Origin: an uncultured bacterium
GTDB taxonomy: Bacteria > CAYUVA01
Length of the DNA stretch: 64,000 nt
Assembly: GCA_964448115.1 (NCBI GenBank)
Contig: CAYUVA010000010.1
Coordinates: 1 to 64,000, forward strand
Direction of reading: 5' to 3'
A model generated the notes under the pieces. It was not told where the DNA came from. It saw only the letters and a program-made list of their open reading frames with translations, and did no database searches. Below are positions 3,968 through 61,856 of the stretch, one piece after another (within the stretch, counting starts at the first letter, position 1; each line of letters opens with the position of its first letter). A program made the translations under genes and the position numbers.

Positions 3968-6900
3968 ATGAAATGTAGGTGGTGCTTTCTTAGCGCATTG
4001 TTATTGTCGGTCGTAATACTGACATGTTCTAGTGTGCAAGTCCATGCCCTGCAAAAGTACGCAGTGCCTAATAACTATATAATCCCCAACGGCTTGGGAG
4101 TCTATTTTACACCCAGTGGACTGGATTTTATGTCCCAAAAGATCGGTCCGGTGGTCGCAAACCTGGATCTAACCGAGATCATCGAGACCGAGGTTCCTGG
4201 TCCACTAGGCACAACCATCATCGTTAACCAAATCATCCTCGATTATGGCGGGGAGGTCAGCGGCACCATCTCAGCCCTGCCCCCGGCAACCCAGCTAATC
4301 GAGGTGCATATCCCCAAGGCTTATCTGGATGTCTTGATCAAGAATGTGCCCTTGATGGGTGATGTCTCAGGCAATATTCAAGTTACTGTCGATGTCAGCG
4401 GAGAATTAGTGCCAACGGTAAAGGAGCTGGGTGTTGGATTCATCGGCTTGAATTATCAACTGACCACTAGCAACCTGGAGACTCACTTCGAGGGTATTGC
4501 CGGCTGGCTTCTGGAGTTCATCGTAGAGACATTTATGCCCAATTATGTCGAAGAACCGATGCGAGAAGCCTTTGAACAGGGAGTAAACACGGTGTTTGAT
4601 GGCAATCCGCTCTTCGACCTGCACAACCTTTTCGCTACCGTGCTTTCGGATATCCCATTTCTAGTTGACTCGCAGCTTGATGAATTTTTCGCCAATGAAG
4701 CCGGCACCCAGATCCTGGTAGAAGGCGGTTTCATGCCGGTCAATGGTCGCACATCTGATCACCTTCCATTTACATTGCCGAATATCCCTCCTCCGGGGAG
4801 AACTACTATTCCAGGAACTATCAATGAGTTTGATCTGGGTTTCATCATCTCCGATGATCTAATCAACTCCATACTCAATATCTTGCTTGATGCTCATTTC
4901 GTTGACTTTCAGTTGGACGATTCTCACACCGAGCCCCTGGGGATTCCTTTTATTACCGATACAGTGAGCGATACGCTGCCTGAGCTTTACCAAAGATACC
5001 CACAGGATTACATGAAAGCGCTGGTTTCCTCTGCTTCAGATTGTAACATAACCCTTATTTCGGACCTTGTCGGCGAGATGAACATAAATCGAAGCAACCT
5101 GGCGCTTTATGTCATCCACCAGGGAAGAGAGCTTTTGGCTTTCGAGGTCTCGGTCTATGTCAAGTTCGATATCGAACTTTTGTTCGATCCCGAATCGGAG
5201 CTAGCCTCCTTTGATATCAGGGTAAAGAAGGACCAACAGGGCGCGCCTTATGTGGATGTTATTGTTTTGGATATGGGTATCCTAGAGCAAACCACCCAAC
5301 AGCAGGTCAAGGATGCAGTCAAGGATATGCTGGTTGAGGTCGATCAAGCCCTTCCATTCAACGAGATCTTCAGTCCACTGCTAAATACCATGCAGGATCA
5401 GGCATTCTTGGGCATCGATCCCATTACGATCGGTATAGGTAGCGATGGAGTCAACCAGGATTACCTAGTTTTTTACATGAAGCTTGCTGGCGATCTAGTG
5501 ATCGATCCCCTAGCTGTCTCAATACCCCAGCGAATGGTTGCCATATCGGATACCGAGAACAGGAGCATTCTTGGGTTAAATGGCTGGACACAGACCTTCG
5601 GCTTCGACTCTCCATACCCGCTGCACCAAAGCCTGATACCAGAGTGTATGACATACCTTCGAGACAAGGATTACTTCTATATTGCAGGCACCCAGACATC
5701 AAAGGGGAATTGCCTGGTTTCGGTAATAGATCTCGACCATTTCAAAGATATCACCAACTCGCCGGCATCAATGGGGGTGGGAAACCCGGTCTCCATGGTT
5801 CGTATCCCAGGAAGGAATATCCTTTACATACTAGACAAAAGCAGCGATAGCATAATGGTAGCTAGCCTTACAGAAAACATCCCATCGCTTACCACCACGG
5901 TAGCTACCGGCGGAGCAAAGAGCCTCGATATAGTCTATGATTCAGCGCATAACCTGTTTTACATAGCCAACTTCCAGAGCGATAACATCAGCGTATTTTC
6001 AACTGCAAACAACACACCTGCATTTGTAAAAACCATTGATCTGACCGGGCATGGAATAAATGGTCCCATTGCGCTGGAGATCAACCTTTGGGACGAGCTT
6101 CTCTATGTAATCGGAAACAACAGCAACAACCTGGGAGCTATAGATATATCTTCAGCTCCAACAACGATGCCCATGTACCGAGTCGTTGCAACTGGTGTCA
6201 TGCCCGGTGATGTGCTTTATTCTTTTAAGAATAACAGCGTCTATGTAACCAACAGCGGGCAGGATAGCATTTCCCAGTTCAAGGCGGATACGCTCGAGCT
6301 AATGCCGGGATCGCCTGCTACGGTGGGAGACTATCCGGAAAGGATGCTGATCACCCCGATGAATCTTTTATATGTGCACAATAAGACCGACAAATCATTG
6401 TCCATCCTGAACGCCGATGACCTTAGCCCCATCCATATAGGCAAGGTAAACCTAGGCACCGGATGCAGCCAGTTGTATTACCTCTCCGAAGAGCCTGCTG
6501 ATACGGTTGCTCCCGGCATCAATGGAGTCAGCTCGCTGGATGATACCTCAGATACGCAGGGTCCTTATGTGGTCAAGGTATCATCGATAACCGATGACCA
6601 TCTAGTTGCCCAGGTAAGGTTGCGCTACACGGTATCCACCTTGGAAACTAAAGCAAGGCAAGCCTTTGAGACAGAAATGATTCGCTATAGAGGAGATAGC
6701 TTTATAGGGCAGATGCCGGGGCAACCAATTGGAAGCCAAATAGACTATTATGTCCGCGCATGGGATGATAGCGGCAACATCAACCAGGTGGGTCCCTTTA
6801 CTTTTAATGTCCAATACCAGGATGAGCAACCGCCAACTTCAAGAATAACCTCGCCGGGTAATGGAGATTACTTGTCAGCAAAACATATCCAGGTTATAGG

Positions 6901-7438
6901 CTATGCTGATGATGCTCCCGGTGGAAGCGGAGTGGAATCGATCCAGGTAAGCACTGACAATGGTAGAACTTTTACCGATGCAACCGGCACGACAAGCTGG
7001 ATATATACTTGGAACTCCCCTGCGGAAGGCAGATACACGCTGCTTTCTAGGGCGATTGATAATGCAGGAAATGTGGAGATCCCGACCGAGAAGGTCATAG
7101 TAAACATCGACCGCACATCGCCGATTGTCTTATGCCAAGGTTACTGGACAACCGCCCTGGATTCAATCTCCGGTGGCAACCTGGTCATAGTGGCACTCAT
7201 CACGGATGAGGACCTGGCTGGAAATCCTGAGATATTCTTCGATGGGGCGGCTACATCAATATACCTTTATGATGACGGGGGAGTAAACGATATCTCACCA
7301 GCCGGCGATGGATTCTACAGCCTGCACTTACCACAGGTGCAAGGACCGCTACCGCAAGGACACTACCTGCTTTGGGTATTGGCACTGGATCATGGAGGAT
7401 TGTTCGGTGTCATGCCTGCTCTTATTGTGCAGGAATGA
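3968..7438 (+). CDS. Large secreted protein: LBP/BPI-like N-terminal module, YVTN-type beta-propeller, Ig-like domains and a conserved C-terminal domain
   Basis: Signal peptide; SD AGGAG upstream; propeller repeats (FYIANFQSDNISVF, VYVTNSGQDSISQF, LYVHNKTDKSLSIL); Ig-like ends YYVRAWDDSGN and SRAIDNAGNVE; aa ~40-505 resemble LBP/BPI. Confidence 0.8.
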   Translation: MKCRWCFLSALLLSVVILTCSSVQVHALQKYAVPNNYIIPNGLGVYFTPSGLDFMSQKIGPVVANLDLTEIIETEVPGPLGTTIIVNQIILDYGGEVSGTISALPPATQLIEVHIPKAYLDVLIKNVPLMGDVSGNIQVTVDVSGELVPTVKELGVGFIGLNYQLTTSNLETHFEGIAGWLLEFIVETFMPNYVEEPMREAFEQGVNTVFDGNPLFDLHNLFATVLSDIPFLVDSQLDEFFANEAGTQILVEGGFMPVNGRTSDHLPFTLPNIPPPGRTTIPGTINEFDLGFIISDDLINSILNILLDAHFVDFQLDDSHTEPLGIPFITDTVSDTLPELYQRYPQDYMKALVSSASDCNITLISDLVGEMNINRSNLALYVIHQGRELLAFEVSVYVKFDIELLFDPESELASFDIRVKKDQQGAPYVDVIVLDMGILEQTTQQQVKDAVKDMLVEVDQALPFNEIFSPLLNTMQDQAFLGIDPITIGIGSDGVNQDYLVFYMKLAGDLVIDPLAVSIPQRMVAISDTENRSILGLNGWTQTFGFDSPYPLHQSLIPECMTYLRDKDYFYIAGTQTSKGNCLVSVIDLDHFKDITNSPASMGVGNPVSMVRIPGRNILYILDKSSDSIMVASLTENIPSLTTTVATGGAKSLDIVYDSAHNLFYIANFQSDNISVFSTANNTPAFVKTIDLTGHGINGPIALEINLWDELLYVIGNNSNNLGAIDISSAPTTMPMYRVVATGVMPGDVLYSFKNNSVYVTNSGQDSISQFKADTLELMPGSPATVGDYPERMLITPMNLLYVHNKTDKSLSILNADDLSPIHIGKVNLGTGCSQLYYLSEEPADTVAPGINGVSSLDDTSDTQGPYVVKVSSITDDHLVAQVRLRYTVSTLETKARQAFETEMIRYRGDSFIGQMPGQPIGSQIDYYVRAWDDSGNINQVGPFTFNVQYQDEQPPTSRITSPGNGDYLSAKHIQVIGYADDAPGGSGVESIQVSTDNGRTFTDATGTTSWIYTWNSPAEGRYTLLSRAIDNAGNVEIPTEKVIVNIDRTSPIVLCQGYWTTALDSISGGNLVIVALITDEDLAGNPEIFFDGAATSIYLYDDGGVNDISPAGDGFYSLHLPQVQGPLPQGHYLLWVLALDHGGLFGVMPALIVQE

Positions 7439-8187
7439 TCGCCTCAAGGAGGACTCTCTTGCAGAGTCCAATAACTCAGGTCATCGCTATCTTTTGCCTG
7501 AGCAAGCTGCTCTTCTTACTGCCGGTACTTGATTTTGATGCTCATGGCTTGCTCAAGGACTTTCTGCGGCTGACCATGCTTTACCTGGCAGTTGTTTACT
7601 ATATTAGGGGAAACCAGCAGGAGAATACTTACACCAAGTTCAAGCCATTGGATATTTTGGGTCTTGGACCCATAAAGGGAAGTGGACTTGGGAAGTGCCT
7701 TATCATGGGAGTGATACCTCTTCTTCTATATACGGTCGTTTTCATCATGGAATCGAGCAAACCTGTCTTAGCACCGCAGCCTTTGTTTATCATTTCATCA
7801 TTATTATTAGGACAAGGGCTGCTTGAGGAAGCCGCGTTTCGAGGATACATCTTTGGGCATCTAAGGCGCAGATATAGTTTTATCCACGCTTCATTGGCTA
7901 CTAGTATCGTATTTGGCGGGATGCATATAATCCAGATGGATCGCTTTGGACTCGCCATGACCCTGTATTCAATGGTTGCAGGCTTTATCATCTCTGCCTT
8001 TCTCTGTTTGCTCGTGGAGTTGAATGGTGGACTAGTATGGGGAACGATAGTGGTTCATCTAGGATTGGATTCGCATCTTGTGTTTGATTTTTCTGTATTG
8101 GATCAGCCTCAAATGTCCCTGGTCGGTATTGCACCTTATTTAACTATTATTATAGGCATAATTCTTTTTCAGCCCTGGAGGGAATAA
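7435..8187 (+). CDS. CPBP (CAAX/Abi) family intramembrane metalloprotease
   Basis: EEAAFRGY, FGGMH and HLGLD motifs in a multi-TM protein; likely start ATG 7435 overlaps the upstream stop (ATGA). Confidence 0.88.
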   Translation: MIASRRTLLQSPITQVIAIFCLSKLLFLLPVLDFDAHGLLKDFLRLTMLYLAVVYYIRGNQQENTYTKFKPLDILGLGPIKGSGLGKCLIMGVIPLLLYTVVFIMESSKPVLAPQPLFIISSLLLGQGLLEEAAFRGYIFGHLRRRYSFIHASLATSIVFGGMHIIQMDRFGLAMTLYSMVAGFIISAFLCLLVELNGGLVWGTIVVHLGLDSHLVFDFSVLDQPQMSLVGIAPYLTIIIGIILFQPWRE

Positions 8188-13965: not shown

Positions 13966-14154
13966 TAACTAAGAAGATAGCATATACGGGTATTAAGCGT
14001 CTATTGCATAAAAAATTGCGCTGTAGAGTCTGTTTAAGTCATGGGTTATTTCAAGGAGATACTAATTTAAGCCTCGATCATATCGATTGGTTGAGCAAGT
14101 AATTTAAAATGATTGATTATCTTTAGATTGATGGATAAAATAAGAAAAGGAGCA

Positions 14155-14826
14155 ATGATGGTGATAAAAGAACCATTGACATTGGAGAATTTGCTACAGG
14201 AAGCAAAGGTATTTTCAGAGTTGCAAGCTTCTATAAAAGAACGAGAACTATATGGAAAATCTGATGGTAAATCCATAGGTACATTTATCGAGCATAAATT
14301 CCATCAGCATCTGGAGCAAAAATACCAGTATGAAAAAGGCTCCTTTGCTTCTGGAATCGATTTCCCTGAGCTGGAAATAGACATAAAAGTTACTAGCATA
14401 GTCCAGCCGCAATCATCTTGTCCCTACAGAGATGCAAGACAGAAGGTATATGGCTTAGGTTATGGATTGCTGCTTTTTGTCTATCAAAAGACCGATGATC
14501 GTCAAGGCAGATATACGACTCTACAGATCGTCCATCTTATATACATTGATAAAAGTCTAACTGGTGATTATGTAACCACCAGGGGAATTCATAATATTAT
14601 TGAGCATAATGGAAATGAAGAGGATATCGCTGCTTTTCTTCAGGAACGAAACCTTCCCATAGATGACATACAAGCAAAAAAGCTTGCTGATGAGATTCTG
14701 TCCAATCCCCCGAAACAGGGATACTTGACCATTTCCAACGCTTTGCAGTGGCGACTCCAATACGGTCGTGTGATCAAAATTGCAGGGGATATAGATGGTC
14801 TCAGAAGGTTAATTAGTGGTGGTTAG
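14155..14826 (+). CDS. Type II restriction endonuclease, NspV-like (PD-(D/E)xK)
   Basis: DGKSIGTFIE..F, GIDFP, DIKVTS..QPQSSCP, RQKVYGLGY, SNALQWRLQY; adjacent to a MTase; SD AAGGAG at 14147 supports a start at about 14155-14161. Confidence 0.8.
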   Translation: MMVIKEPLTLENLLQEAKVFSELQASIKERELYGKSDGKSIGTFIEHKFHQHLEQKYQYEKGSFASGIDFPELEIDIKVTSIVQPQSSCPYRDARQKVYGLGYGLLLFVYQKTDDRQGRYTTLQIVHLIYIDKSLTGDYVTTRGIHNIIEHNGNEEDIAAFLQERNLPIDDIQAKKLADEILSNPPKQGYLTISNALQWRLQYGRVIKIAGDIDGLRRLISGG

Positions 14827-14827
14827 A

Positions 14828-16363
14828 ATGGATTACAGTAATAGAAAAAAGGAATACGGTGATTTTCAAACTCCATTATCCTTGGCTACTGAAATATGCA
14901 ATTTTCTAAAACAACAAGGACTAAAGCCTGCTAGTATAATAGAACCAACCTGCGGAAAAGGAAATTTTCTGACAGCTTCCATTAGTGCATTTGAGGATGT
15001 GTGTGAAGTTATTGGCTTGGATATTAATTCTGATTATATAGAAAATTTACGAGAAGATCTTTCTAATATAACAAATAAAAGAAATATCAAATTATTTAAT
15101 GAGGATTTCTTTTTATTCGGATGGGCTGATACCATTAAACGATTACCTAATCCCATTTTAGTTATAGGTAATCCACCATGGATTACTAATTCACATCTCA
15201 GTACATTTGGCAGTTCAAATCGACCACAAAAATATAATTTCCTCAATATTAAAGGACTTGATGCTATTACTGGCGCAAGCAATTTTGATATATCTGAAAA
15301 TATGTTAATGCAGCTTATAGAAATATTAAACGGTAGGAAAGCTGTATTGGCAATGATTGTAAAGTACTCTACATCCAGGAAACTATATTGCTTTTGTCGT
15401 AATAAGAGTTTAATGCTGTCAGATTATCGGTTCTATTATTTAGATTCAAGAAATCATTTTGGTGTCTCGGTGGATGCTGGATTATTATATATTGAGTTCT
15501 ATCCCCCCCGCAAAGAGTATTTCTATGAAGTCTATGAATCCTTCTATCAAAGTAAAATTCCTCTCAAGTCGATCGGAACAGAAGACGGCGTTTTAGTTTC
15601 TGAGATCAAAAGTTACCATAAACTCAAGCACTTAATCGCAACCGACTCATATAATTGGCGTTCTGGAATAAAACATGATTGCAGTAAAGTCATGGAGCTT
15701 TATAAAAACGATGCAGGATTCAAAAATAGCTTGGGGGAGATCGTGGAACTGGAGGATGATTTTCTATATCCGATGCTTAAAAGCTCCGATATTGATAAGG
15801 ATAAGCCGGTTTACAAGTATATGCTCGTACCACAAAAAAGGCTTGGAGAAAGCACAAGTTATATCAAAGACAAGGCACCGAAGACTTGGAATTATCTTTG
15901 CGAGCATAAAGGATTACTTGATAAAAGGGCAAGTAATATTTATAAAAAACAACCTGCTTTTTCGGTGTTTGGAGTTGGAGATTATACTTTCCTTCCATGG
16001 AAGGTTGCTGTCTCCGGCTTCTATAAATCATTAAAATTTAAGGCTGTCGGTCCCTATGAATCTAAGCCGGTGGTATTCGATGATACAGTTTATTTCCTTC
16101 CCTTAAGCTCTGGTGAGCTAGCTCAATTAATCGCTCGTGCTTTGAACACAGATGTCGCAAGGGAGTTTTTTAAGTGCTTTTTATTTGGTGATGAAAAAAG
16201 ACCTATTACCGCTAAGTTATTGAAAAGGTTAGATATATTGGCTCTAATTAGGTCCCTCGGTTGGCAGAATGAATTAAATGCAATCCTGGATAAAGAAAGC
16301 AAGGACTCTTTGAGGTTCTGGTTACATCCCAAGATAAAACATCTATCAATCCTGGATTATTGA
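14828..16363 (+). CDS. N6-adenine DNA methyltransferase (gamma order), M.NspV-like
   Basis: GDFQTP, motif I IIEPTCGKGNF, motif IV GNPPW, WRSGIKHD; starts just after the REase stop; AT-rich. Confidence 0.88.
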   Translation: MDYSNRKKEYGDFQTPLSLATEICNFLKQQGLKPASIIEPTCGKGNFLTASISAFEDVCEVIGLDINSDYIENLREDLSNITNKRNIKLFNEDFFLFGWADTIKRLPNPILVIGNPPWITNSHLSTFGSSNRPQKYNFLNIKGLDAITGASNFDISENMLMQLIEILNGRKAVLAMIVKYSTSRKLYCFCRNKSLMLSDYRFYYLDSRNHFGVSVDAGLLYIEFYPPRKEYFYEVYESFYQSKIPLKSIGTEDGVLVSEIKSYHKLKHLIATDSYNWRSGIKHDCSKVMELYKNDAGFKNSLGEIVELEDDFLYPMLKSSDIDKDKPVYKYMLVPQKRLGESTSYIKDKAPKTWNYLCEHKGLLDKRASNIYKKQPAFSVFGVGDYTFLPWKVAVSGFYKSLKFKAVGPYESKPVVFDDTVYFLPLSSGELAQLIARALNTDVAREFFKCFLFGDEKRPITAKLLKRLDILALIRSLGWQNELNAILDKESKDSLRFWLHPKIKHLSILDY

Positions 16364-21288: not shown

Positions 21289-23316
21289 TTAGTGGGAAGG
21301 TGGTCTGAATGAATCTTTATCAGAGGAGCCTTTGTCCGATGCCTTGATGATACGGATTACACCGCTATCGCGAAGCTTGCTGATCATCAAACAAGCCTGA
21401 TATCTGGGGATCTCAACTCTCATAATAATATCCATGATGGAGCGCTTGCCATTGATTAACTTTATTATCTCCCATTGCTGACGGGATAGATCGAGCATAT
21501 TTAATGTTGAAAGCCTTGAGCGATTTATCATTGGCACGAAGTCCAAAGAGCCGATCTGGGATATGGTTTTCCGGTAGATCCTGTTTTGCACCGAGTTGAC
21601 CAAGTTCCTGGTATCACGATCAGGCTCGAGCCTATATGCAATCAGGTGAAACTGGATGCCATTTTCGAGATCTTCACTAAGAACCAGGTCATTGCCGTGC
21701 TCGATTAGTGCTTCTTTTAGAGTAATCTTTTTCCTTTTATCTGTCTGGCAGATCCCCATTAACTTCTGTAAAAAGCGATTATAAATATCCTTTACGATTT
21801 TATTATCTTTTTCTTGGAGGAATAGTTCATAAGCATCCTGAAAGGCATCAAGATATAATGCCTCATCGAGCAACTGCTCAAGGTATCTTTCATAATCGAC
21901 AGGAGACTCTAGGGGTGGAGGTCTTTTATAGTATTTTTTAGGCAACTTCTTTACTCTTTTGACCTTCACGCTGCTTTTAATCTCTATTTTTTTGCCATTG
22001 ATATCATTTTCCTTGTTGCCAATAAGCTCATTTTGCAGGTTGCGTATGATTCTAAGAAGCATCGAGCTGGTAACCCTAAGATCCTCGGAGCTTTCGATTA
22101 TTGTCTCCTTATCCTTAGGATGGCTCCTTTCTCGCAGCCTTGCTTCCAATTCCCTGGAGACTAGATAGATTATTCGATATCCATTACTTTTTTCTTTGGT
22201 GAGGGAGTTAATAGCTTCCATTCCCTTCTCCATGGTTGTTTTGCTCAAATCAAGAATGATTATCCCGGAAGTCTCCTTGGGCAATAGGTCTATTCTAAGC
22301 TCTTTGTTTATAATGGAGTTAACGCTCAATCCAGCCTCGGAAAGGTTAAGCCCTAGCTCGTTCAGGGCAGCTCTATCAGTTCCAACCAAGGTCAGCTTCA
22401 AGTCTCTGAGCTTATCTTGAATTATTCGTATTTTCTTGGTCTCGAACTCCTCGGCAGTTGTAGGTCTAACCAGATTTGATTTGCCCTTTTGTAGTTTATC
22501 TTTCTCCTTTTCAAGGAGCTGCTCCAAGGCTTTTATTACCTCTCCACAGCTTTGGTAGCGCTTTTTAATGTTCCTTTCGAGCATCGTATATATAACTTTT
22601 TCCAGTGTTTTATGTATATCGGGAACGAGCTTTCTAAGCGATGGCACTCTAGCGGTAGCAATATTTTCTAGCAGCTCAGCCAGAGTTTCCCCCTTAAATG
22701 GCGGAACGCCTGTCAAAGCCTCGAAGATGGTAACACCAACGGAGAAGATATCTCCCTGGGGTGTATCGATTCCCATGAGCCGTTCTGGTGCGATGTACTG
22801 AGCGGTGCCGGGGACTTGCAGCTCGCCTTTTTCTTGCTCTATCCTGCCGGCTTTTATGGTTGCCATACCGAAATCAGCTATCTTTACATCGAGATTCCTG
22901 GTCAGCAGAATATTGCCCGGTTTGATATCGCGATGGATAACTCCGTATTTATGAGCACAATTAACTCCGTAGAGTATCTGTAAAGCCCACTTGACTACTA
23001 GTTCGATGGACACCGTTTTATTTTGTCTTAAATAACTATAAAGACTGCTTCCATCAACATACTCCATGACAATAAAGGGAGCTCCATCTGATTCGCCATA
23101 GTCGAGAGTGGTTACGATGTTAGGATGGAAGAGCTGACCGGAGGCAACCGCTTCGTTTATTATCATGGCTGTCTCGGGAATATCGGAATTCTTAAAAAGC
23201 GAACTTTTTATAGTTTTTATCGCCACATGGCGGTGGAGCGCAGGATCAAAGCACAGATAAACTATCCCCATTCCACCTCTACCAAGCTCCTTGATAACCT
23301 TGTATCGGCCAATCAT
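21289..23316 (-). CDS. Cytoplasmic Hanks-type Ser/Thr protein kinase with a degenerate receiver-like region and C-terminal helical domains
   Basis: LGRGGMG, VAIK, HRDIKPGN, DFG, GTAQYIAPE; no TM segment; IIILDL segment in the middle. Confidence 0.9.
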   Translation of the reverse strand: MIGRYKVIKELGRGGMGIVYLCFDPALHRHVAIKTIKSSLFKNSDIPETAMIINEAVASGQLFHPNIVTTLDYGESDGAPFIVMEYVDGSSLYSYLRQNKTVSIELVVKWALQILYGVNCAHKYGVIHRDIKPGNILLTRNLDVKIADFGMATIKAGRIEQEKGELQVPGTAQYIAPERLMGIDTPQGDIFSVGVTIFEALTGVPPFKGETLAELLENIATARVPSLRKLVPDIHKTLEKVIYTMLERNIKKRYQSCGEVIKALEQLLEKEKDKLQKGKSNLVRPTTAEEFETKKIRIIQDKLRDLKLTLVGTDRAALNELGLNLSEAGLSVNSIINKELRIDLLPKETSGIIILDLSKTTMEKGMEAINSLTKEKSNGYRIIYLVSRELEARLRERSHPKDKETIIESSEDLRVTSSMLLRIIRNLQNELIGNKENDINGKKIEIKSSVKVKRVKKLPKKYYKRPPPLESPVDYERYLEQLLDEALYLDAFQDAYELFLQEKDNKIVKDIYNRFLQKLMGICQTDKRKKITLKEALIEHGNDLVLSEDLENGIQFHLIAYRLEPDRDTRNLVNSVQNRIYRKTISQIGSLDFVPMINRSRLSTLNMLDLSRQQWEIIKLINGKRSIMDIIMRVEIPRYQACLMISKLRDSGVIRIIKASDKGSSDKDSFRPPSH

Positions 23317-23481
23317 TCCAGTAAAATAAAGAAAGTTGCTCTAGGCTTCCAACTCAATACCTACTTGAAATATACACAGGAATATCTAAAATTGCAACAG
23401 AAACAAATAGATAAAAAAAATTTATTTCCATAAAAAATTCTTGAAAGACCGCATTTCGGATCCGGGTTGCTCGCTTGCCGA

Positions 23482-23510
23482 TTGTATTCTCAGGGCATCG
23501 GTATTATAAT
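23482..23510 (+). promoter_or_regulatory. Candidate sigma70 promoter upstream of the patatin gene
   Basis: TTGTAT, 17-bp spacer, TATAAT(23505-10). Confidence 0.4.
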
Positions 23511-23562
23511 ATGATTATAATGAGCGTTCTTTTAATTAACTCGGCTGGATGAGGAAATCCTT

Positions 23563-25176
23563 ATGACACTTCTTCATTCTGAAAAGATCCTGTTAATCAC
23601 CCGCAAGGGCAAGGTCAATGCGATCACCAAAGCTCTTAAGGAGAAGAAAAATCTTTACATCCGCCCTGGAGACAACGGTTCTCTTGTCATCTCACGCTTC
23701 AGGGAAAGCAAGGAATCAACCGGCTATATCAGGCACTTCAATCTTCACTTCGAGTACACCGCGGTAGATGCAACCAAGAAAATGGAACAGGAATACTTCA
23801 ACCTGGTAGCTATTGATGGCGGAATCTCGCTAGGCCAAAAAGGCTCACCACGCGATCAGGTTGAGATGTTCCGCTTCATCGACCTTTTGCCCAAGTTCGA
23901 CTCCATAAAGCCATATCGAGTTGACCGAATATTAGCCCTTTTGGAGCAATCGGATGACCTGTACCGGGTAACCTTTGAGCTAGGCAAGAGGCAGATCGGC
24001 TCCTTTATCTTGGATCCATTCAAGGGGGATAACTTCTTCGATGCTGTAGAGGGCATACTAAAAGCAAGAAAAACCGGCGCAAAGGCTGCCTTATGTCTCG
24101 CTGGCGGAGGCTTGGAGGGGCTTTTATACGAGCTGGGAGTGGTCAGGGCACTTAACTCATTTTTAGTAAACAAGAAGGTTACCGAGTTGGATATTTACTG
24201 TGGCATAAGCGCTGGCGCTATACTCGGTGGTATCTTGGCTAACAAAATACCCCCTGAGGAGGTGCTAAGAGCATTCGAGGGCGAGTCGGAGATCTTTGAG
24301 AGGGTCAACGCCAAGACAATATATGACCTTTATTTCGATGAGTACCTGTTCAGGCTTATTCGTTTCTGGACTAATGTAATCAGGACTCGCTCTTATACAA
24401 AGCTGTTAAACGAGATATTCAAGAGCGTTCCGGTCGGCTTCGTCAAGGGTGATAAGCTGGAGGCATACTTCGAGCGCCACCTGAACAAGCCCCCATATAC
24501 AAACGATTTCAGGGACTTAGAGTGCGAGCTATATATCGGCGCAACCAACCAGGACACCTCTGAGCATGTCATCTTCGGAGACGAGGGGCGCAAGCATATC
24601 CCGATAACCAAGGCTATCAGGGCATCCACCGCACTGGCTCCATTCTATGCGCCCATACAGATTGACGGTGATTGGTACATCGATGGCGGATATACCCGGG
24701 TGGCAAACTGGAACTTCGCTATCGAAAAAGGCGCCGGATTGGTCATAATAGTCGATCCTTTAATACCACTTCGAGTACCTGATAATAGGGGGTACATAAA
24801 CAGCAAGGGTGGTCTATTTGTCGCGCTTCAGGCGATAAAAGCCATGATGGAAGCGAGAAGGAAGACTTCCCTGGAGCTATCCCAGGAAAAGCATCGCGAT
24901 GTCGATTTCTATCTTTTTCAGCCTCGGCAAAGCACCATGAGGATAATGAGCGGATCGCCCATGAAATATAATATCCGGACCCAGATTGCCCGTCTGGCTT
25001 ACGAGGAGACCGTCGAGCAGATACTGGAGCATTTCGCATTGTACCAAAAAAGCTTCCTGCGATATGGACTAGTCATGACCAAGGATAATGTCATAAAGGA
25101 AAAAGAGAAGGTGCGCATGGGGAAAGAGGCTTTCATCGATATGCTCATGTATCCTATCGACTCGCAATTGACCTAG
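23563..25176 (+). CDS. Patatin-like phospholipase with a ~170-aa N-terminal extension
   Basis: LAGGGLEG, GISAG (GxSxG), ASTALAPFY, YIDGG. Confidence 0.9.
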   Translation: MTLLHSEKILLITRKGKVNAITKALKEKKNLYIRPGDNGSLVISRFRESKESTGYIRHFNLHFEYTAVDATKKMEQEYFNLVAIDGGISLGQKGSPRDQVEMFRFIDLLPKFDSIKPYRVDRILALLEQSDDLYRVTFELGKRQIGSFILDPFKGDNFFDAVEGILKARKTGAKAALCLAGGGLEGLLYELGVVRALNSFLVNKKVTELDIYCGISAGAILGGILANKIPPEEVLRAFEGESEIFERVNAKTIYDLYFDEYLFRLIRFWTNVIRTRSYTKLLNEIFKSVPVGFVKGDKLEAYFERHLNKPPYTNDFRDLECELYIGATNQDTSEHVIFGDEGRKHIPITKAIRASTALAPFYAPIQIDGDWYIDGGYTRVANWNFAIEKGAGLVIIVDPLIPLRVPDNRGYINSKGGLFVALQAIKAMMEARRKTSLELSQEKHRDVDFYLFQPRQSTMRIMSGSPMKYNIRTQIARLAYEETVEQILEHFALYQKSFLRYGLVMTKDNVIKEKEKVRMGKEAFIDMLMYPIDSQLT

Positions 25177-25224
25177 GGTTGCTGGTAACTTTGTTAGCTA
25201 GCAAGCTGTAAATGAAAAAGTTTT

Positions 25225-26859
25225 ATGGATCAACGCACCGCAATCATAATCTTGGTTATCTTGATCCTGGCTCATGCTGTGCTCAACTCGGTATGGCTGC
25301 GCGCTGATGAACAACTAGCTCACACCGATTTTCACTTCCACATCCTAAGCGCCCTTCGGAACTACGATATTATGACCGGCAGCATCTGCCAGAAAACCAC
25401 GGTGCCCAATCAAGGCTACCCTCCACTTGCCTACCTGGCACCACTGCCTTTTATGACCCTATTGGGGCGAACCGATGATGCAGCCTGTTATGCGTCGATA
25501 TTATGGATGGCGATTCTTGTAATCTTTACCTATCTTATCGGAACACGATTAGGGAACCGAGCGGTCGGTCTTGTGGCAGCCTTCTTGGTGAGTACTTACC
25601 CGATGATATTCGGCATGTCTCGTCAATGCTGGCCAGATCTCGCACTGGCAGCCATGGTTACCGTCTCGGTTTATCTTCTTCTAGCCTCCGAGTTGATGAC
25701 CAGAAGGAGCATAGTCATTCTGCTCGGAGTTTTTATGGGGGCTTCGGCACTCTCCAAGATACCCTGGTTCATCTTCGTAGAGCCGCTGCTTATAGTGATC
25801 CTAATCTATGGCTGGATGGTCAAGTCATCGAACCGAGCCGACATACTAGCAAATATCTTCATTAGCCATTCTATTGCCTTTGTGGTCGCGCTGCCCTGGT
25901 ATTTGGGCAATCTTTTTTATGCTTTTCAGTTCGCCAGCGATACAGCAAAAAAAGGTGTAGGCGATGATCCCCAGAGTATTCTCTCCATAAGTGGTCTTTT
26001 GCATTACCTAAAGTTGATGATAGAGACGCAGGTATCACTGTTATATTTTTTAGCATTTATGCTGGCCATCTTATTTTTAGTCATCCGATTCAAGAGCTCA
26101 ATCCATGAAAACGAGCAGGGAGGTTTTCCCTTACTTATCGTAATCTTGTGGGTAGTGGTTCCTTATGTCATTTTCTCGCTATTTACCCATAGGTTTCCCC
26201 GCTATACGCTTCCATACCTGCCCGCGGTCGCTTTGCTCACCAGTCTGGGGTTGAACCTGATACCCTGGCAAAAAATAAGAAATCTGATCATAATGGCGAC
26301 CGCTATCTTGGGGGCATTGCAGTTTGCCTGCTACAGCTTCGACCTCGGCAAGCTCTCCCAGGTTCATCTAAGACTGGAGCCGCTGGGAATCGTTGCCTAT
26401 CACCCAACCGGCTTTCTATGGCAGCGAGCCGCTTATCAACCGCAAGATCAAGGCGCGCATATAGCAACCATCAAGGATATCCTAACCGCTATCTCAAACG
26501 ATTGGAACCAGAAAGCCGAGACCGCAGATGTGCGGATTCTGTTCAACAACTCGCTGGCGAATGCGATTACCTTTAATCATTACCGGGCGCTTCTTTGTAT
26601 CACCAACCTCGAGGTATCGCCCCTGGAGGACTGCAAAGGCTCTCCCATACCGATACTATTCCAAGCTGATTATCTTCTGCTGTCCAACGAGCATGGCTAT
26701 AGCGAACAATTCGGATACCTGGCTGAGAAGCCCCTTAAGGCGATTGAGTTTATCAAGGGCAAGGGCGAACATGCCTTTTATGAGCACTTCGAGCAGCTAC
26801 AAACCTGGCAGTTCGATGATAGCAACATCGAGATCGGCTTGTATAAAAGGAGATTTTAA
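25225..26859 (+). CDS. GT-C (ArnT/PMT-like) membrane glycosyltransferase
   Basis: HTD..H loop, YPPL, WPD, SK, RYTLPYLP; multi-TM. Confidence 0.82.
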   Translation: MDQRTAIIILVILILAHAVLNSVWLRADEQLAHTDFHFHILSALRNYDIMTGSICQKTTVPNQGYPPLAYLAPLPFMTLLGRTDDAACYASILWMAILVIFTYLIGTRLGNRAVGLVAAFLVSTYPMIFGMSRQCWPDLALAAMVTVSVYLLLASELMTRRSIVILLGVFMGASALSKIPWFIFVEPLLIVILIYGWMVKSSNRADILANIFISHSIAFVVALPWYLGNLFYAFQFASDTAKKGVGDDPQSILSISGLLHYLKLMIETQVSLLYFLAFMLAILFLVIRFKSSIHENEQGGFPLLIVILWVVVPYVIFSLFTHRFPRYTLPYLPAVALLTSLGLNLIPWQKIRNLIIMATAILGALQFACYSFDLGKLSQVHLRLEPLGIVAYHPTGFLWQRAAYQPQDQGAHIATIKDILTAISNDWNQKAETADVRILFNNSLANAITFNHYRALLCITNLEVSPLEDCKGSPIPILFQADYLLLSNEHGYSEQFGYLAEKPLKAIEFIKGKGEHAFYEHFEQLQTWQFDDSNIEIGLYKRRF

Positions 26860-26965
26860 CCTCAAATAGATATCTGATCTTAAATATTGAAAAATTGTTC
26901 TAATGTTTATAATATGAGTTATCGAGCATCAGGATGATCGGTCGCTTATTCAATAAGAGGGGTCT

Positions 26966-29254
26966 ATGTTAAAACAATTCAAAGATTATCGTATCCAGAA
27001 GCTCTTGGGCAAGGGCGGTATGGCAGAGGTTTACTTGGCTAGGAGTTCTAGCCTGCAAAAAGCGGTCGCCCTGAAGATACTTCCCTCCTTCGGAGCAGAT
27101 GATCCCCAGTTCATAAGTCGCTTTAAGCATGAGATCAAGGCGCATTCCTCGCTGGATCATCCCAATATCGTCAAGGTCTATGAGGGTGGCGAACACGAGG
27201 GGCAGCTTTATTTTGCCATGGAGTATATAGATGGTTGGACGGTAAGCGAATTCCAGAGAAAGTATGGCAATATCATACCGCCGATAGCTTCTTTCATCTG
27301 CAAGGAGGTGCTAAAAGGACTCAAGCACTCGCATGAAAGCGGGGTCATTCATCGAGATATCAAGCCGGCTAATATCATGATCTCACGCAATGATGGACAG
27401 GTAAAGATAGCTGACTTCGGACTGGTCAAAGCAGAAGACCTGACCATGCTCACCCGCACCGGTGAGATCCTGGGCACACCCTGCTATATGTCTCCCGAAC
27501 AGGCATCAGGGGAACAGGTGGATCATCGCACCGACCTTTATTCACTGGGAGTCATGCTCTATGAGATGCTAAGCGGAGTACAGCCATTTTACGATACCAG
27601 CCTGCAATCTATACTCAGAAAAGCAGCCATGAATGAATACAAGCCGCTGTGGGAGATAGACCTGATTACCCCCTTCGAGTTCCATCCTATCGTGGAGCGG
27701 CTCATGTCAAAGAATCCAAGCGACAGGTATGCCAACGCCGACGAGGCGCTGAAAGCGATCAAGGAGATCTGCGGCATGTTCGGGAATCTCTCCAGCCAGG
27801 ACTACTTTCGCATATTCATCACCAATCCCTCATTCTTCATCAAGCAGATAAACGAGCTGATGTCCAATAAGTACCTGGACTACGCAAAAAGGATCTATGA
27901 GCGAAGCAAGACAAACATCGGATATGCCCTGCTGGAGGTCAACCGGGCACTCAAACTGGATCCTGAGAATAAAGACGCACAAAGCTTCTACAAGAAATTG
28001 ACCAATAAAAGCAATTTTCATCTTGAAGAAAAAACCGTCCCTCATCTTCAGGAGCTGGAGACCAGGATTGTAAAGGAACAGGAAAACTATAATTTACTTC
28101 TCTCGTTGGCTAAGGGACATCAAAACGAGGGGAACCTGACCAAGGCTTTCGTTTACTATAAGCGACTACAACGGCTGAAGCCCGGCGATGATTATGTGAG
28201 CTTACAGCTTAAAAACCTGCTTGGAAAAAAGGGAGTCGCCAGGGTGAAGCCGATTGACTATACACTGGTAATGCCGACCCAGAAATCCAATGCTGATGAT
28301 AAACAAAACCTAAAGCAACAATCGGCATCAAAGCCTGATGAGAAGGCTCCTATAGCTGAAGAGCCGATCCCGGTCGAAGAAGAAGACAAGAAGGCTCCCG
28401 ATGTACGCGTGATTACTCCAGAGAACTTCATGGAGTACAACATCGAGCGCAGCCGAAGGCAGGCGGTAGGCTCTATACTTTTTAAAAAGTACATCATTAT
28501 CGCTCTTATAATAGCCTTCATCGGATTGGGGGGGTACTATGGGTACAAGTATCTACCACGAGACCTTCTCGATGATCTAAAAGAGAAACTTACATCCACA
28601 CAAGAAAAGAAACTTGGAGAGAAACAAAGCTCCATTCCCTTCATGGAACTGTACGATAAGGCACAGACGCAATTCGCTAAAGGCAACTATGACAAGGCAA
28701 TAGAGCTATACCAGGCATTCTTGAATCGATATCTGGATAATCCGATGATCGTTCAGTCAAAGTTCAACATCGCTCGTTCACTCAATTCGATGGGAATGAG
28801 AGAGGAAGCGTTGAATCACCTGAACGAGATCATCCAATTCTACAAAGGCTCATTCATCGAGGTCGATGCTTTGTACGAGAAGGCGATGATACTGATAAAC
28901 CTGGGTAGGAAAAACGAGGCGGAAAGGGTATTCGATTATCTATACCAGAAGATTACCTTGCAGATACCATTCGATAAGCGCTATACCATGATGATGGCTA
29001 ACGCCAATTTGCTAAGCGAGCTTAAGGATTATCGTAAGGCTTTGCTTAGGCTAGATTACCTGGTGGTACATAATCAAAGGCAACGCAAGATACCAGATGT
29101 TTACCTGAAAAAAGGGGAGATTTTACTTGCCTTGGAGGATTATACTGAGGCACGGCGGGCTTTTGAGATGACCAAGCTCGACTCGTCTCCGGGAAGCGCT
29201 GCCTACCAGGCTGCCTCCAGGCATATTCAAAGGCTGAACGAGGAATATAGATAA
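26966..29254 (+). CDS. Membrane-anchored Ser/Thr protein kinase with cytoplasmic and extracytoplasmic TPRs
   Basis: LGKGGMAEVY, HRDIKPAN, DFG, GTPCYMSPEQ, DLYSLG; single TM (YIIIALIIAFIGLGGYYGY); TPR repeats. Confidence 0.93.
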   Translation: MLKQFKDYRIQKLLGKGGMAEVYLARSSSLQKAVALKILPSFGADDPQFISRFKHEIKAHSSLDHPNIVKVYEGGEHEGQLYFAMEYIDGWTVSEFQRKYGNIIPPIASFICKEVLKGLKHSHESGVIHRDIKPANIMISRNDGQVKIADFGLVKAEDLTMLTRTGEILGTPCYMSPEQASGEQVDHRTDLYSLGVMLYEMLSGVQPFYDTSLQSILRKAAMNEYKPLWEIDLITPFEFHPIVERLMSKNPSDRYANADEALKAIKEICGMFGNLSSQDYFRIFITNPSFFIKQINELMSNKYLDYAKRIYERSKTNIGYALLEVNRALKLDPENKDAQSFYKKLTNKSNFHLEEKTVPHLQELETRIVKEQENYNLLLSLAKGHQNEGNLTKAFVYYKRLQRLKPGDDYVSLQLKNLLGKKGVARVKPIDYTLVMPTQKSNADDKQNLKQQSASKPDEKAPIAEEPIPVEEEDKKAPDVRVITPENFMEYNIERSRRQAVGSILFKKYIIIALIIAFIGLGGYYGYKYLPRDLLDDLKEKLTSTQEKKLGEKQSSIPFMELYDKAQTQFAKGNYDKAIELYQAFLNRYLDNPMIVQSKFNIARSLNSMGMREEALNHLNEIIQFYKGSFIEVDALYEKAMILINLGRKNEAERVFDYLYQKITLQIPFDKRYTMMMANANLLSELKDYRKALLRLDYLVVHNQRQRKIPDVYLKKGEILLALEDYTEARRAFEMTKLDSSPGSAAYQAASRHIQRLNEEYR

Positions 29255-29281: not shown

Positions 29282-31678
29282 TTATGGCATTACTGTAAGG
29301 TATGGCCAGGGGATACTGTGTTGCGCAACCGAATCCTTTGCCGACATACTAATAATCAGAGGCTCGGTAGTCATGCCCCCTGTAAGCTCCAAAGCTAAGC
29401 AGAATACACCATCACCAGCCGCATAATCTCCGTGTGCACCTCTATCGAAGATAACCAGATCAAGCAGCTCATTGGCGTAGCTCAGCTCTACTCCCTCTAG
29501 CTCGTATCCTGGACCAGCTTGAGCAATCGCGAGCAAGTATAAGGTAGTACTCCCCATCTGGGCTTCATTAGCTAATACGAGCCCGCCAAGATAAAGCATT
29601 GGTCGATGGTAGTCTTTTTTATACCTTATCCTGCGAGAGAGCAGGCTCTGATTAGCAGATTGAAGTGCGCTCACTGCGAGATGAATCTGATCGTAGTTCC
29701 CTAGTTCAAGCTCGGATAGGAATGCATAGCTGCGGTTGTGAACATCCAAGCATGATACATTGTGCATATCAGGATAAGAGATGGCTTTATACTGGCTATA
29801 ATAAACCCTGTAATCAGTTATTTCAGTATCGCGCATAGGTTGCCATGCTATTATATGCTCGCCCTGGAGGTCGTAGATTCCTGCATTCAAGGGTGCAAGC
29901 AACGACAATTCTCCGTGTGGCTTTTTACTGTAGGGCTTGAATATGATCATGTTCAGATCGTTTGCCTTTTCAAGTTCCAGGGCTTGAATTATCATGAGCG
30001 GATTTGTGGTGCCCCAGTAATTCTCGGTAACATTTATGTTCCCATTACCCGATATCCTCAGCAGGCTACCATGCCAATCGTTTATTATATTATTTTGACG
30101 TATCTTCGTTTTCTTAAGCGAAAATTCATCCAGAAGGTTAAGGCTTATCTGTGTTCCTGTGTTATTCATCAGAGTATTGCTGATTATATCGCAACCAGTT
30201 TTCTCAAGCATCAAGCCGCTGCCTTTAAACATTGAGTCATTATCTGCTATGGCATTTTCCTTGATTAGCGTGCGATTGATATCGGTCAGGTAAACCGCAG
30301 CTCCGACCTCGGTCATATTCTCCAGGATGAGATTGTTGGTTAGATTCATAAATGGAATCTTCTCGCAGTAGATGGCGCTGCCCCCCTGGCGGGAGCTATT
30401 ATTGATGATCAGGTTTCCGGCAATCGTTACCTCAGTGCCATATAGACATAAGCCTCCGCCGCTGATCATCGTTGAGTTATCAATAATTCTGGAATCGATG
30501 ATGTAAATATTTGAGCTATCATCGTACACACCGCCACCATAACTATGGGCATAATCGGTCATGTTAGCCGAGATATTGCAGTCACTTATAGAGCCAATAG
30601 AATTGGTAAGATGAATGCCACCACCAAGCATCTTGGTACGGTTATTTGAAATATGGTTCCTGGTCAGATGCACCTCGGAGAGATCAATTTCCATGCCACC
30701 TCCTGCCATGCCAGATGTATTGCCTCGAATGATATTATCTTGAAGGTAAACCAAGGCTGAGTCGCCGATAGAGATGCCTCCGCCGAAGCGGGTGGAGCAA
30801 TTGTAGGAGATATTATTATCGCTGACTAAAATATTCAGTGAGCCTAGAAGACAGATTCCGCCACCCTGACGATAACAATCATTGCCAATCACTTCATTTT
30901 CTCGGATCTGGATGGAGCCACCGCGAACGAATATCCCGCCTCCGGAGCCATAGACGCTATAATTGTTGATAATACGATTACCCTCGATCAATCCCTCACA
31001 ATGATAAAGATATAGCGGGCTGCCGCTATCAGTGCTAACATTTCCATAGACCTGGTTGCCCTTGAACAAGATATTTGAGTACTCGGCATAGAGGGCATTA
31101 CCTCCTTCATTGCTGATGTTTTTGTAGATCTGGTTGTTTATTAGATAAGGTTCACCAAAATAAATCCGTAAGGCAGCGCTACTAACGCTTGAACATTGTG
31201 TTATGCTGCATTCCCTTATCATCGGGGATGCTTGATCACAGTAAACACCAGTCTTTGCATACTCGATGATGCAGTATCTACAGATGCTGCCACTTAGGTA
31301 ATTCAGGGCATCATCCACCAGGGCATCCTTGGCGCTATCTTTGAATTGAATACCATTGTAATCGCCGCGCTTGGGTAAGGTCATGTTGGAGGTGAATGTT
31401 ATCCTTTGTTCTGCGCTTCCTATCGCTATAAGCTCGCCAAATACGATCAATGCTGTATTCCTGGCAAAGCGTAGCGTAACACCTGCCTCTATGATAAGGC
31501 TTGCATTTACATCCACGATGAGGTCGCCGGTTACGATATAGGGGCTTTGTGAGGTAGTAAATACCTCAAAACCTTCAATGATACCTTGTACCTCAGTATT
31601 GGCAGATGATATTTCATAGAAGGAAATAATTATTAGGACGGATACCAAGATTATTATCGATTTTGCTATTACCTTCAT
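29282..31678 (-). CDS. Secreted right-handed parallel beta-helix protein with a conserved C-terminal domain
   Basis: Signal peptide; many I..N....GGGI repeats (GGA(I/L/V)-like); N.WGT motif; GDYAAGDG C-terminal domain. Confidence 0.82.
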   Translation of the reverse strand: MKVIAKSIIILVSVLIIISFYEISSANTEVQGIIEGFEVFTTSQSPYIVTGDLIVDVNASLIIEAGVTLRFARNTALIVFGELIAIGSAEQRITFTSNMTLPKRGDYNGIQFKDSAKDALVDDALNYLSGSICRYCIIEYAKTGVYCDQASPMIRECSITQCSSVSSAALRIYFGEPYLINNQIYKNISNEGGNALYAEYSNILFKGNQVYGNVSTDSGSPLYLYHCEGLIEGNRIINNYSVYGSGGGIFVRGGSIQIRENEVIGNDCYRQGGGICLLGSLNILVSDNNISYNCSTRFGGGISIGDSALVYLQDNIIRGNTSGMAGGGMEIDLSEVHLTRNHISNNRTKMLGGGIHLTNSIGSISDCNISANMTDYAHSYGGGVYDDSSNIYIIDSRIIDNSTMISGGGLCLYGTEVTIAGNLIINNSSRQGGSAIYCEKIPFMNLTNNLILENMTEVGAAVYLTDINRTLIKENAIADNDSMFKGSGLMLEKTGCDIISNTLMNNTGTQISLNLLDEFSLKKTKIRQNNIINDWHGSLLRISGNGNINVTENYWGTTNPLMIIQALELEKANDLNMIIFKPYSKKPHGELSLLAPLNAGIYDLQGEHIIAWQPMRDTEITDYRVYYSQYKAISYPDMHNVSCLDVHNRSYAFLSELELGNYDQIHLAVSALQSANQSLLSRRIRYKKDYHRPMLYLGGLVLANEAQMGSTTLYLLAIAQAGPGYELEGVELSYANELLDLVIFDRGAHGDYAAGDGVFCLALELTGGMTTEPLIISMSAKDSVAQHSIPWPYLTVMP

Positions 31679-55713: not shown

Positions 55714-56625
55714 TCAGTTGTCTATCTTCCTGGCTACTAGCCCGAAGTAATCCTCCAGCTTAACCTCTTCGATGATCTCCATGCCATGATTTATCAGCGC
55801 CCGGCAGATCTGCGAAGCCTTTTCCTTGACTATTCCAGAACAGATTAATACGCCGTTTTCCTTCAGACAATCGATAATCTTTTCTGCACAGTCGATCAAT
55901 ATCTGCACATATAGATTTGCACAGACAATATCAAAGAACCCGGTTTCCTCGAGATCCCTCACATCGCAGCACTCCAATACAGGATTTAATAAGATGCCGT
56001 TCAGCTCCAGGTTCATATATGTATTTTCTATTGCCTCCGAATCGATATCTATCATCTTCACCTTCGAGGCACCTAGCTTCAAAGCTGCAATCCCCAAGAT
56101 GCCGCTGCCACAGCCGATATCGAGCACCCAATCAGCCGGCGAGATAAATTCCTCCAAAAGCTCAAGACAGCAACGAGTCGTCTCGTGGAAGCCGGTGCCG
56201 AAGGCGGTGGCTGGATAGATGATGATAGGTATGCGAGATAAGGGATCTGGGGGTAGCTTTTTACCGGGGATGATGATCAATGTCTTTCCAACGGGCATAG
56301 GAGTAAGGGTTCTTTGCCAGGCAGCGAGATAATCCTCGGCTTTGATCTGATCTATCTCCACCCGTTCCAGCGCAGATCCGCATCTGCGTGCTGCATTATC
56401 AAGCTGATTTATGATCTTATCAGGCTCAGCTTGTTTATTGCCTAGAAGATAAAAGGTCAGCAATAGCCTGTCTTCAGCAATAAAGAGCCTACCGCCCAGC
56501 TCGGTATCCTTATCCTGGAGCTGGAATGAGGTGATGCCGAGTTCTATCAACTCGGCGGTTATAATATCAAAAGCGCCAGGGTCGATCAGAATTCGTATCC
56601 TAGTATGTTTCCTCGAACGGCTCAT
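55714..56625 (-). CDS. prmA: Ribosomal protein L11 methyltransferase
   Basis: P.TAFGTGFHETTRCCL, VLDIGCGSGIL, DID, ANL, SGI; start uncertain and overlaps the upstream gene. Confidence 0.93.
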   Translation of the reverse strand: MSRSRKHTRIRILIDPGAFDIITAELIELGITSFQLQDKDTELGGRLFIAEDRLLLTFYLLGNKQAEPDKIINQLDNAARRCGSALERVEIDQIKAEDYLAAWQRTLTPMPVGKTLIIIPGKKLPPDPLSRIPIIIYPATAFGTGFHETTRCCLELLEEFISPADWVLDIGCGSGILGIAALKLGASKVKMIDIDSEAIENTYMNLELNGILLNPVLECCDVRDLEETGFFDIVCANLYVQILIDCAEKIIDCLKENGVLICSGIVKEKASQICRALINHGMEIIEEVKLEDYFGLVARKIDN

Positions 56626-58334: not shown

Positions 58335-58946
58335 TCATATCAGGTGTAGCCAGTCGCCCAAGAGGAACTGCATCCTGCCGATGAGAAGCGAGATGCGAGC
58401 CATGACCGTATAACCAAAGGAAGCGCCGAACGAGATCATCAAAAAATAAATCCCAATCTTAGCCAAAACCCCGAATGCTCCCCTGTGCGCCTTGGAGAAG
58501 AAGAAATAAAATAAGCCAGTCAATACGCCGATTACCAAGACCAGGTGATTAAGAAAGCTCACTTCGGGACCGGTAACGATGGTGCCCTTTAGCTGCATTA
58601 ACACATTCGACTGGATATAAACGACAAAGTAGATCCCTGAGCCGGTGCCGATCATGAATGCCAGCGGCCAGCGACTCATCCAGCCCAACTTGGCAGAGAG
58701 CCTAAAGAGCATCATAATCCCCAGAAAAAATGGGATCAATAAAAGGAAATTGTGTGCAAAGTCCTCGGTTAAGGGGACAAAGAGCTTCCTGATGAAGATC
58801 TCATGCCAGTACCTGCCGAACCAGTAGCCAGCGGATACGCCGACGAAAAGATGCTCGCCTATCTTGTAAAAAGGATTGTCTTTATACAGAAAACTGAATA
58901 TGGATAATGTAAGTATCGCAGCCAACCATATGCCAAACGTTTCCAT
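58335..58946 (-). CDS. Uncharacterised polytopic membrane protein (GlmL-like operon)
   Basis: ~6 TMs; SFLYKDNP, EHLFVG.SAGY, FGASFG..VMARISLLIGR. Confidence 0.8.
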   Translation of the reverse strand: METFGIWLAAILTLSIFSFLYKDNPFYKIGEHLFVGVSAGYWFGRYWHEIFIRKLFVPLTEDFAHNFLLLIPFFLGIMMLFRLSAKLGWMSRWPLAFMIGTGSGIYFVVYIQSNVLMQLKGTIVTGPEVSFLNHLVLVIGVLTGLFYFFFSKAHRGAFGVLAKIGIYFLMISFGASFGYTVMARISLLIGRMQFLLGDWLHLI

Positions 58947-58960
58947 GCCCCATTTAACTC

Positions 58961-59836: not shown

Positions 59837-59838
59837 GC

Positions 59839-61851: not shown

Positions 61852-61856
61852 TATCC

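Follow-up and report, generated by a model that had tools for sequence, protein, structure and literature searches.

A BPI-like double TULIP module fused to a beta-propeller in an uncultured bacterium: a predicted lipid carrier

The TULIP-fold proteins BPI and LBP bind lipopolysaccharide (LPS) through conserved cationic residues at the tip of their N-terminal barrel (residues 86-102) and share a disulfide in that domain, as described in the accessible parts of PMC4620459 and PMC10353861. Two-barrel proteins of this kind have also been reported in bacteria. DUF4403 was described in 2019 as a full-length BPI-like pseudodimer, predicted, exported and about 460 amino acids (aa) long; its members are mostly lipid-anchored single modules, and its link to BPI was given as 63% by HHsearch over 167 residues (PMC6791001). 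In 2023, a bacterial protein, A0A2D5ZNG0, was found to cluster with human BPI, with a template modelling score (TM-score) printed as 0.81 in the accessible text of PMC10584675. The bacterial double TULIP TipA of Bdellovibrio has been crystallised; according to the available part of the preprint, it holds lipids and binds bilayers, and other double TULIPs are fused to beta-rich and other domains (bioRxiv 10.1101/2025.09.09.675085). Here, we analyse a protein of 1156 aa, P0001, encoded by a single open reading frame (ORF) at 3968..7438 (+) of a stretch of 64,000 nucleotides (the window) at the start of contig CAYUVA010000010.1, from an uncultured bacterium (GenBank assembly GCA_964448115.1). An earlier inspection of the letters alone (the original prediction) had proposed that this protein carries an LBP/BPI-type module and had taken bacterial TULIPs to be single-barrel and remote; the latter statement is contradicted by the three examples above. 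The existence of bacterial two-barrel TULIPs is therefore not new, and we concentrate on the anatomy of P0001, on its relatives, and on what it may do.

The double TULIP module and its charge

P0001 contains a BPI/LBP/CETP-type double TULIP at aa ~39-509 (4082..5494, +), whose homology emerges from family profiles. The module alone has a sub-threshold match to LBP_BPI_CETP_C in Pfam (E 0.016) and no match in the PDB. P0001 reaches 15.1 bits with PF02886 (cut-off 23) and does not match PF01273; its paralogue P0003 exceeds the curated cut-off of PF02886. Single-sequence searches gave nothing at E 0.01 among 7998 candidates, no positive among 60 other genomes, and four proteins among 1.84 billion representatives, namely P0001, one paralogue, P0004, and P0005. 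We grew the family alignment from 6 rows to 22 and then 43, including loci from other genomes. The 6-row profile matched BPI with E 2.9e-9 and LBP with E 1.7e-7, the 22-row profile with E 6e-22 and 5e-16, and the 43-row profile aligned with BPI residues 1-422 (E 4e-20) and LBP residues 5-465 of 467 (E 2e-19), such that the sequence homology covers both barrels. The Pfam models match only part of this family at E 0.01 (PF02886, 23/43 members; PF01273, 6/43). A 39-row profile lacking the clade of P0001 recovers this protein over nearly its whole length (E 7e-21), while one built from three full-length fused proteins alone matches LBP (E 9e-5) and BPI with an E-value of only 0.14. From word-indexed profile searches, the family gained one more TULIP-like protein, P0007 (E 6e-4); two further matches covered the propeller only. 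A feature search of the Atlas returned clusters of Myxococcota (0.95, 0.93), a cluster of Bacteroidota (0.94) with PF02886 on 57% of its members, and eukaryotic LBP/BPI clusters (0.90, 0.88).

The predicted model consists of two TULIP barrels (helix, four-strand meander, helix) placed head to head via a central beta-sheet. From the DSSP assignment of this model, the N-terminal barrel (a helix, four long strands, and a helix) lies at aa ~49-210 (4112..4597, +) and the C-terminal barrel at aa ~296-476 (4853..5395, +). CETP is the nearest structure by TM-score (0.66, with a root mean square deviation of 3.9 over 425 residues), against 0.53-0.57 for BPI and 0.38-0.41 for LBP, and the predicted fold is thus a boomerang whose overall shape is closest to CETP. 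An earlier model from 6 rows, later superseded, had a pLDDT (predicted local distance difference test) of 64.5 and already ranked BPI at the top. Several strands of the C-terminal barrel have one strongly non-polar face (9/10 residues in aa 387-407), the non-polar inward faces are maintained, and across the family the two barrels and the central sheet retain their full length. Hydrophobic pockets that take up lipids are predicted for the module. Both the profiles and the model bear out the original prediction of a complete two-barrel module, and the five segments that it had likened to LBP lie at aa 42-55, 289-316, 330-345, 390-396, and 496-506.

The LPS capture that had been proposed with it fares differently. 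The module is strongly acidic, with 18 Lys and Arg for 69 Asp and Glu and a computed isoelectric point (pI) of about 4, and its N-barrel (aa 40-212) has 5 of the former for 22 of the latter; BPI has a pI of about 10 and LBP one close to neutral, as given in the accessible parts of PMC4620459 and PMC10353861. Tip loop 1 (aa 78-81; 4199..4210, +) is uncharged, its counterpart in BPI being lysine-rich, and the first hairpin of the N-barrel, at the tip, has no basic residue at all. Tip loop 2 (aa 127-131; 4346..4360, +) is hydrophobic; in the alignment it falls on the stretch through which BPI/LBP, polycationic there, bind LPS (residues 86-102; PMC4620459, accessible part). Over the corresponding 21 aa, a hydrophobic turn is surrounded by 1 Lys and 2 Asp, and the two tip segments hold 0 and 1 basic residues. 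The cationic cluster of the LPS-binding LBP/BPI subfamily is absent. Instead, the tip loops are non-polar, with a Trp (aa 180) among the tip residues. PLTP has a surface hydrophobic cluster, reportedly at its tip. CETP is anchored to lipoproteins via W105/W106/W162 in simulations, in the accessible part of PMC13223356. The N-barrel also lacks cysteines (the only one in the mature module is C359), and with them the N-domain disulfide conserved in the LBP/BPI subfamily (C135-C175 in BPI). Because both the cationic tip and the conserved disulfide (PMC4620459, accessible part) are absent, LPS capture in the manner of BPI or LBP is not supported. Judged by its sequence, the module belongs with the BPI-like double TULIPs and lacks two of the features that define the LPS-binding subfamily. 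The net charge of the aligned bacterial modules is negative in 43/43 cases (-23 to -77), and such uniform acidity predicts that the bacterial members of the family do not bind LPS in BPI's way.

Relatives and spread of the family

The host genome encodes two paralogues of P0001 (contigs C48 and C70), and the three copies are strongly diverged (18-29% identity). P0004, retrieved from the 1.84 billion representatives, is a metagenomic protein of 1126 aa with the same layout. Stand-alone TULIP forms without a stalk also exist: P0006 and P0005, the latter a protein of 512 aa with a cluster mate labelled Gemmatimonadota. In a tree of the 43 rows, made of bacterial sequences only, the modules of the four fusion proteins group as a single clade (99/97) with long branches, that of the P0001 module amounting to 1.7 changes per column.

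The 43-row profile has matches in 23/400 other bacterial genomes, from 18 families; 6 of these 23 genomes had supplied rows to the profile. The 6-row profile, which contains no member of the phylum of genome G262, was positive in 17/17 genomes of that phylum, with 1-8 matches each. Two further small phyla were positive in 6/6 and 5/5 genomes, counts that are partly by construction since members from 1 and 2 of these genomes had gone into the profiles. In the G262 phylum (loci L012, L013, L028, and L035-L062), the BPI-like module is mostly the terminal domain of proteins of ~1000 aa; tandem TULIP pairs occur at L040 and L047, and one frame holds two modules (G099:C31). The 82 ORF rows of relatives contain some duplicates and some cut ORFs. 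In 41 of them the protein stops at the TULIP, in many cases behind an N-terminal stalk of several hundred residues, and 20 have a C-terminal tail of the form Cys-hydrophobic-Arg, of MYXO-CTERM type by pattern. The two long stalks that were read (L013, L028) start with a lipoprotein-like Cys followed by an Asp-rich linker. These architectures suggest that the common design of the family is a tethered double TULIP, with the genome-specific tag of P0001 (see below) standing where other members have anchors.

We found no fused propeller of the P0001 type in the loci fetched from other genomes, which were cut about 1.5 kb from the match; in 13/82 rows, among them those of the three host copies, the frame continued past the cut. 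Two scans of metagenomes gave 6 and 419 pattern matches, of which 0 were confirmed as loci. In genome G103, a gene for a YVTN beta-propeller lipoprotein (L013:224-1357 (-)) directly follows a TULIP gene, which suggested a split form of the fusion. We rejected this idea because the orthologue, single-copy in 17/17 genomes of the G262 phylum, adjoins a listed TULIP in only 1/17 of them and lies about 17 kb off in one more.

Domain layout and genomic setting

The N-terminus of P0001 has the secreted-type start noted in the original prediction: by eye, a likely cleavable type I signal peptide (aa 1-27; 3968..4048, +) with a basic start, a hydrophobic core, and a V-H-A end. All four TULIP-propeller proteins have such a start by the same criterion, and the Cys at aa 20 of P0001 is not conserved in the other three. 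The fusion to a beta-propeller also held: aa ~520-841 (5525..6490, +) match PF10282, the family of the seven-bladed lactonase propellers (E 1.8e-10), and 3hfq (E 1.8e-5), so that the propeller is of lactonase/YVTN type by profile. Of the Ig stalk placed after it, only two small domains were found. A presumed Ig-like domain of ~110 aa (aa 843-951; 6494..6820, +), with no Pfam match, is alignable in P0001, P0003, and P0004, and a Big_7 domain (aa 956-1025; 6833..7042, +) is recognised by Pfam and has a Pro/Thr linker in its place in the other three copies. The protein then ends with a tag of ~109 aa that the original prediction did not mention (aa 1048-1156; 7109..7435, +). This domain has no Pfam match and is repeated across the genome, in 161 ORFs, 142 of which have a copy at most 15 aa from their end; it is carried by 4/4 TULIP-propeller proteins. 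Signal-like starts occur in 141/161 tagged ORFs by a crude rule that also fires on 751/1716 background ORFs.

A second tagged protein is encoded in the window (29282-31678 (-)), with a pectin-lyase/NosD-like repeat body and a weak choice-of-anchor X match. Elsewhere in the host genome, 3/10 genes for FadL-family barrels directly adjoin a tagged gene on the same strand, and a fourth is divergent from one (G000 C39 29392-32310; C36 23715-26687; C22 36189-41573; C5 106651-112694). This adjacency, which may be fortuitous, could point to a barrel that partners the tag. A role of these barrels as PorV-type tag shuttles is not supported (best score 34 bits for a cut-off of 90).

The TULIP-propeller gene has an unremarkable GC content relative to its flanks and points away from genes that, judged from their translations by eye, are valS-like and nadC-like. 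A promoter scan gave 4 sites versus 8.3 in shuffles, i.e., fewer than by chance. Its stop codon overlaps the ATG (ATGA) of a gene for an Rce1/CPBP-family membrane protease (7435..8187, +); just two genes of the host match PF02517, this one included. It is absent beside the two paralogues, and among the NCBIfam models it comes closest to those of the sorting proteases MrtJ and MrtS, with scores far under the cut-offs. The three host loci show neither a small beta-sandwich (TipB-like) gene beside the TULIP nor linkage to Mla or Lpt genes. The genome itself (G000; 3.98 Mb, 94% complete) has no relative among the genomes available for comparison closer than the same domain. The host is a two-membrane cell: its genome encodes LpxC, LpxB, four Omp85 proteins, and six secretins, and also 10 FadL-family barrels.

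Three other regions of the window were recorded. A low-GC (0.36) pair of genes, restriction endonuclease-like and DNA methyltransferase-like, without Pfam match at 1e-5, is inserted after a deaminase-like gene (14113-16363 (+)). Positions 21289-29254 hold a patatin phospholipase and a GT-C glycosyltransferase flanked by two Ser/Thr kinases, one with TPRs and one with a weak receiver domain. A run of membrane and hypothetical genes around a DUF6754 gene and a MutL (GlmL-type) family gene (58335-63988 (-)) is followed by an ExeA-like AAA/peptidoglycan-binding gene (56600-58267).

Possible functions and comparison with known systems

We propose that P0001 is an exported, envelope-tethered lipid carrier that works like CETP or PLTP rather than like the LPS-binding BPI and LBP, a reading to which we give a probability of about 0.5. 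The protein would be exported by Sec through its signal peptide, and its C-terminal tag would hold it either to the cell surface or to further exported proteins, with the propeller selecting the target or acting as a spacer. The non-polar tip of the barrel would dip into an outside lipid surface, the pockets would load phospholipid, fatty acid, or neutral lipid, the source being membranes, vesicles, or debris, and the cargo would be handed over to the cell's own outer membrane, possibly via FadL-type barrels. Circumstantial support comes from the lipids and bilayers bound by TipA, from the 10 FadL-family barrels of the host, and from a slight enrichment of this barrel family in TULIP-positive genomes (matches in 17/18, median 3.5, versus 12/18 negative genomes, median 1.5). 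This comparison is confounded, since some negatives may be cells with a single membrane, related genomes do not count as independent, and the barrels may carry other substrates.

Several other observations weigh against the carrier reading. The preference for the shape of CETP hinges on the predicted hinge angle, and by sequence the 43-row profile matches BPI and LBP, not CETP. The acidity is partly general in the tagged proteins of the organism (median -6.4 per 100 aa, versus -10.5 for the module). The MYXO-CTERM model was matched by 1/4 of the tails tested, below its cut-off. The three host copies have no FadL or lipase gene next to them, and within about 1.5 kb of the TULIP genes no neighbour is widely conserved across lineages. 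The host also has a FabF-type ketoacyl synthase and probably does not depend on foreign fatty acids; an argument from fatty-acid auxotrophy was dropped for this reason.

Other functions have to be weighed against this one. P0001 could be an adhesin or contact sensor that recognises lipids, its tip binding lipid surfaces or particles and its pocket lipids being structural plugs without net transfer. The layout, with its propeller, Ig domains, Pro/Thr linkers, and tag, is adhesin-like, the multiple and very diverged paralogues per genome (as in the host, and the 1-8 matches in one phylum) fit such a role, and the plug phospholipids of CETP are described as structural in the accessible part of PMC13223356. 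Yet both barrels and the central sheet persist at full length across the family, and P0005 and P0006 have no stalk, and we consider this function a minority prospect. Somewhat less probable still is a housekeeping role, proposed also for YceB and DUF4403, in the traffic of the cell's own lipids within its envelope (periplasm or outer membrane). In its favour, every searched genome of the three small phyla is positive (with the reservation made above for two of them), an acidic surface would keep the protein from adhering to the LPS of its own cell, and traffic from the inner to the outer membrane has been proposed for other bacterial TULIPs (PMC6791001). However, the tag is common to about 160 large proteins, most with signal-like starts, some relatives have tails of the type of MYXO-CTERM, a surface-sorting tag according to the accessible part of PMC11980579, the family was not found in 377/400 sampled bacteria, and the three loci read lack Mla or Lpt linkage.

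A protein that captures LPS from other bacteria or damages their membranes, like BPI or the predatory TipA, which is the strongest form of the original prediction, is improbable given the acidic module, its tip without a cationic cluster, and the missing disulfide, and the host itself has lipid A genes. We regard as very improbable that the fold is kept for a non-lipid hydrophobic ligand or as a rigid rod. The long branch of the P0001 module and the hormones and carotenoids bound by single-barrel TULIPs (from the titles of structure entries) would agree with it, but the inward faces remain non-polar, and the solved structures of BPI, CETP, and TipA contain lipids (CETP, PMC13223356; TipA, 10.1101/2025.09.09.675085; both in their accessible parts). 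The broader ideas of the original prediction, namely that the protein binds lipids in a general sense, is displayed at the surface, and bears on how the fold arose, are plausible as predictions.

The full-length link to BPI and LBP by hidden Markov models (HMMs), together with the presence of the family in several deep lineages, would suit a bacterial family that is old and lies close to the root of its eukaryotic counterpart. Tentatively, and with less confidence than in the carrier itself, we suggest that the acidic tethered double TULIPs could be the bacterial sister or source of eukaryotic LBP/BPI/PLTP/CETP. They might represent an ancient module with which deep-branching two-membrane bacteria scavenge lipids at their surface, the cationic LPS-binding tip being a later eukaryotic addition. 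In the host, the module may have been remade into a tagged propeller-TULIP device, its propeller either choosing the target or gating the barrel. The link by plain HMM search over full length is tighter than those published for DUF4403, YceB, or P47, and the origin of the BPI/LBP fold thus becomes testable by an ordinary tree once eukaryotic sequences are added. Meanwhile, a nameless protein of 1156 aa and its two paralogues become predicted lipid carriers, and a large unnamed bacterial family gains a working profile.

Compared with human BPI (1BP1/1EWF), mouse LBP (4M4D), and human CETP (2OBD), and with PF01273 and PF02886, the P0001 module is 11-15% identical, acidic, uncharged in its tip loops, devoid of the N-barrel disulfide, and below the Pfam cut-offs; these free secreted proteins also lack the propeller, Ig, and tag domains to which it is fused. 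TipA, like P0001 (for which export is suggested by the signal peptide), is a bacterial secreted-type BPI-like double TULIP. It has a dimerisation hairpin and helix and a separate adaptor gene, TipB. It was not among the PDB matches listed, which does not exclude kinship between the two. A0A2D5ZNG0 has a bacterial BPI-like structure and possibly belongs to the family assembled here; in the accessible text of PMC10584675 it is a passing example, without analysis of family, charge, or architecture. DUF4403 shares a predicted pseudodimeric bacterial TULIP with a weaker link to BPI, and its Pfam model matched none of 22 members at E 1, nor any of 43 at E 0.01. YceB, P47, and OrfX2/OrfX3 are bacterial and have the TULIP fold in common with P0001. 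A literature search, with subscription papers mostly outside its reach, returned no TULIP-propeller fusion and no account of the family, although the "beta-rich domains" in Fig. EV2 of the TipA preprint may show such a fusion. By its sequence, the absence of an LPS-binding tip sets P0001 apart from LBP and BPI. What looks new is the layout, which joins a signal peptide, a double TULIP, a beta-propeller, Ig-like domains, and a genome-wide tag in four proteins, three from the host and one metagenomic.
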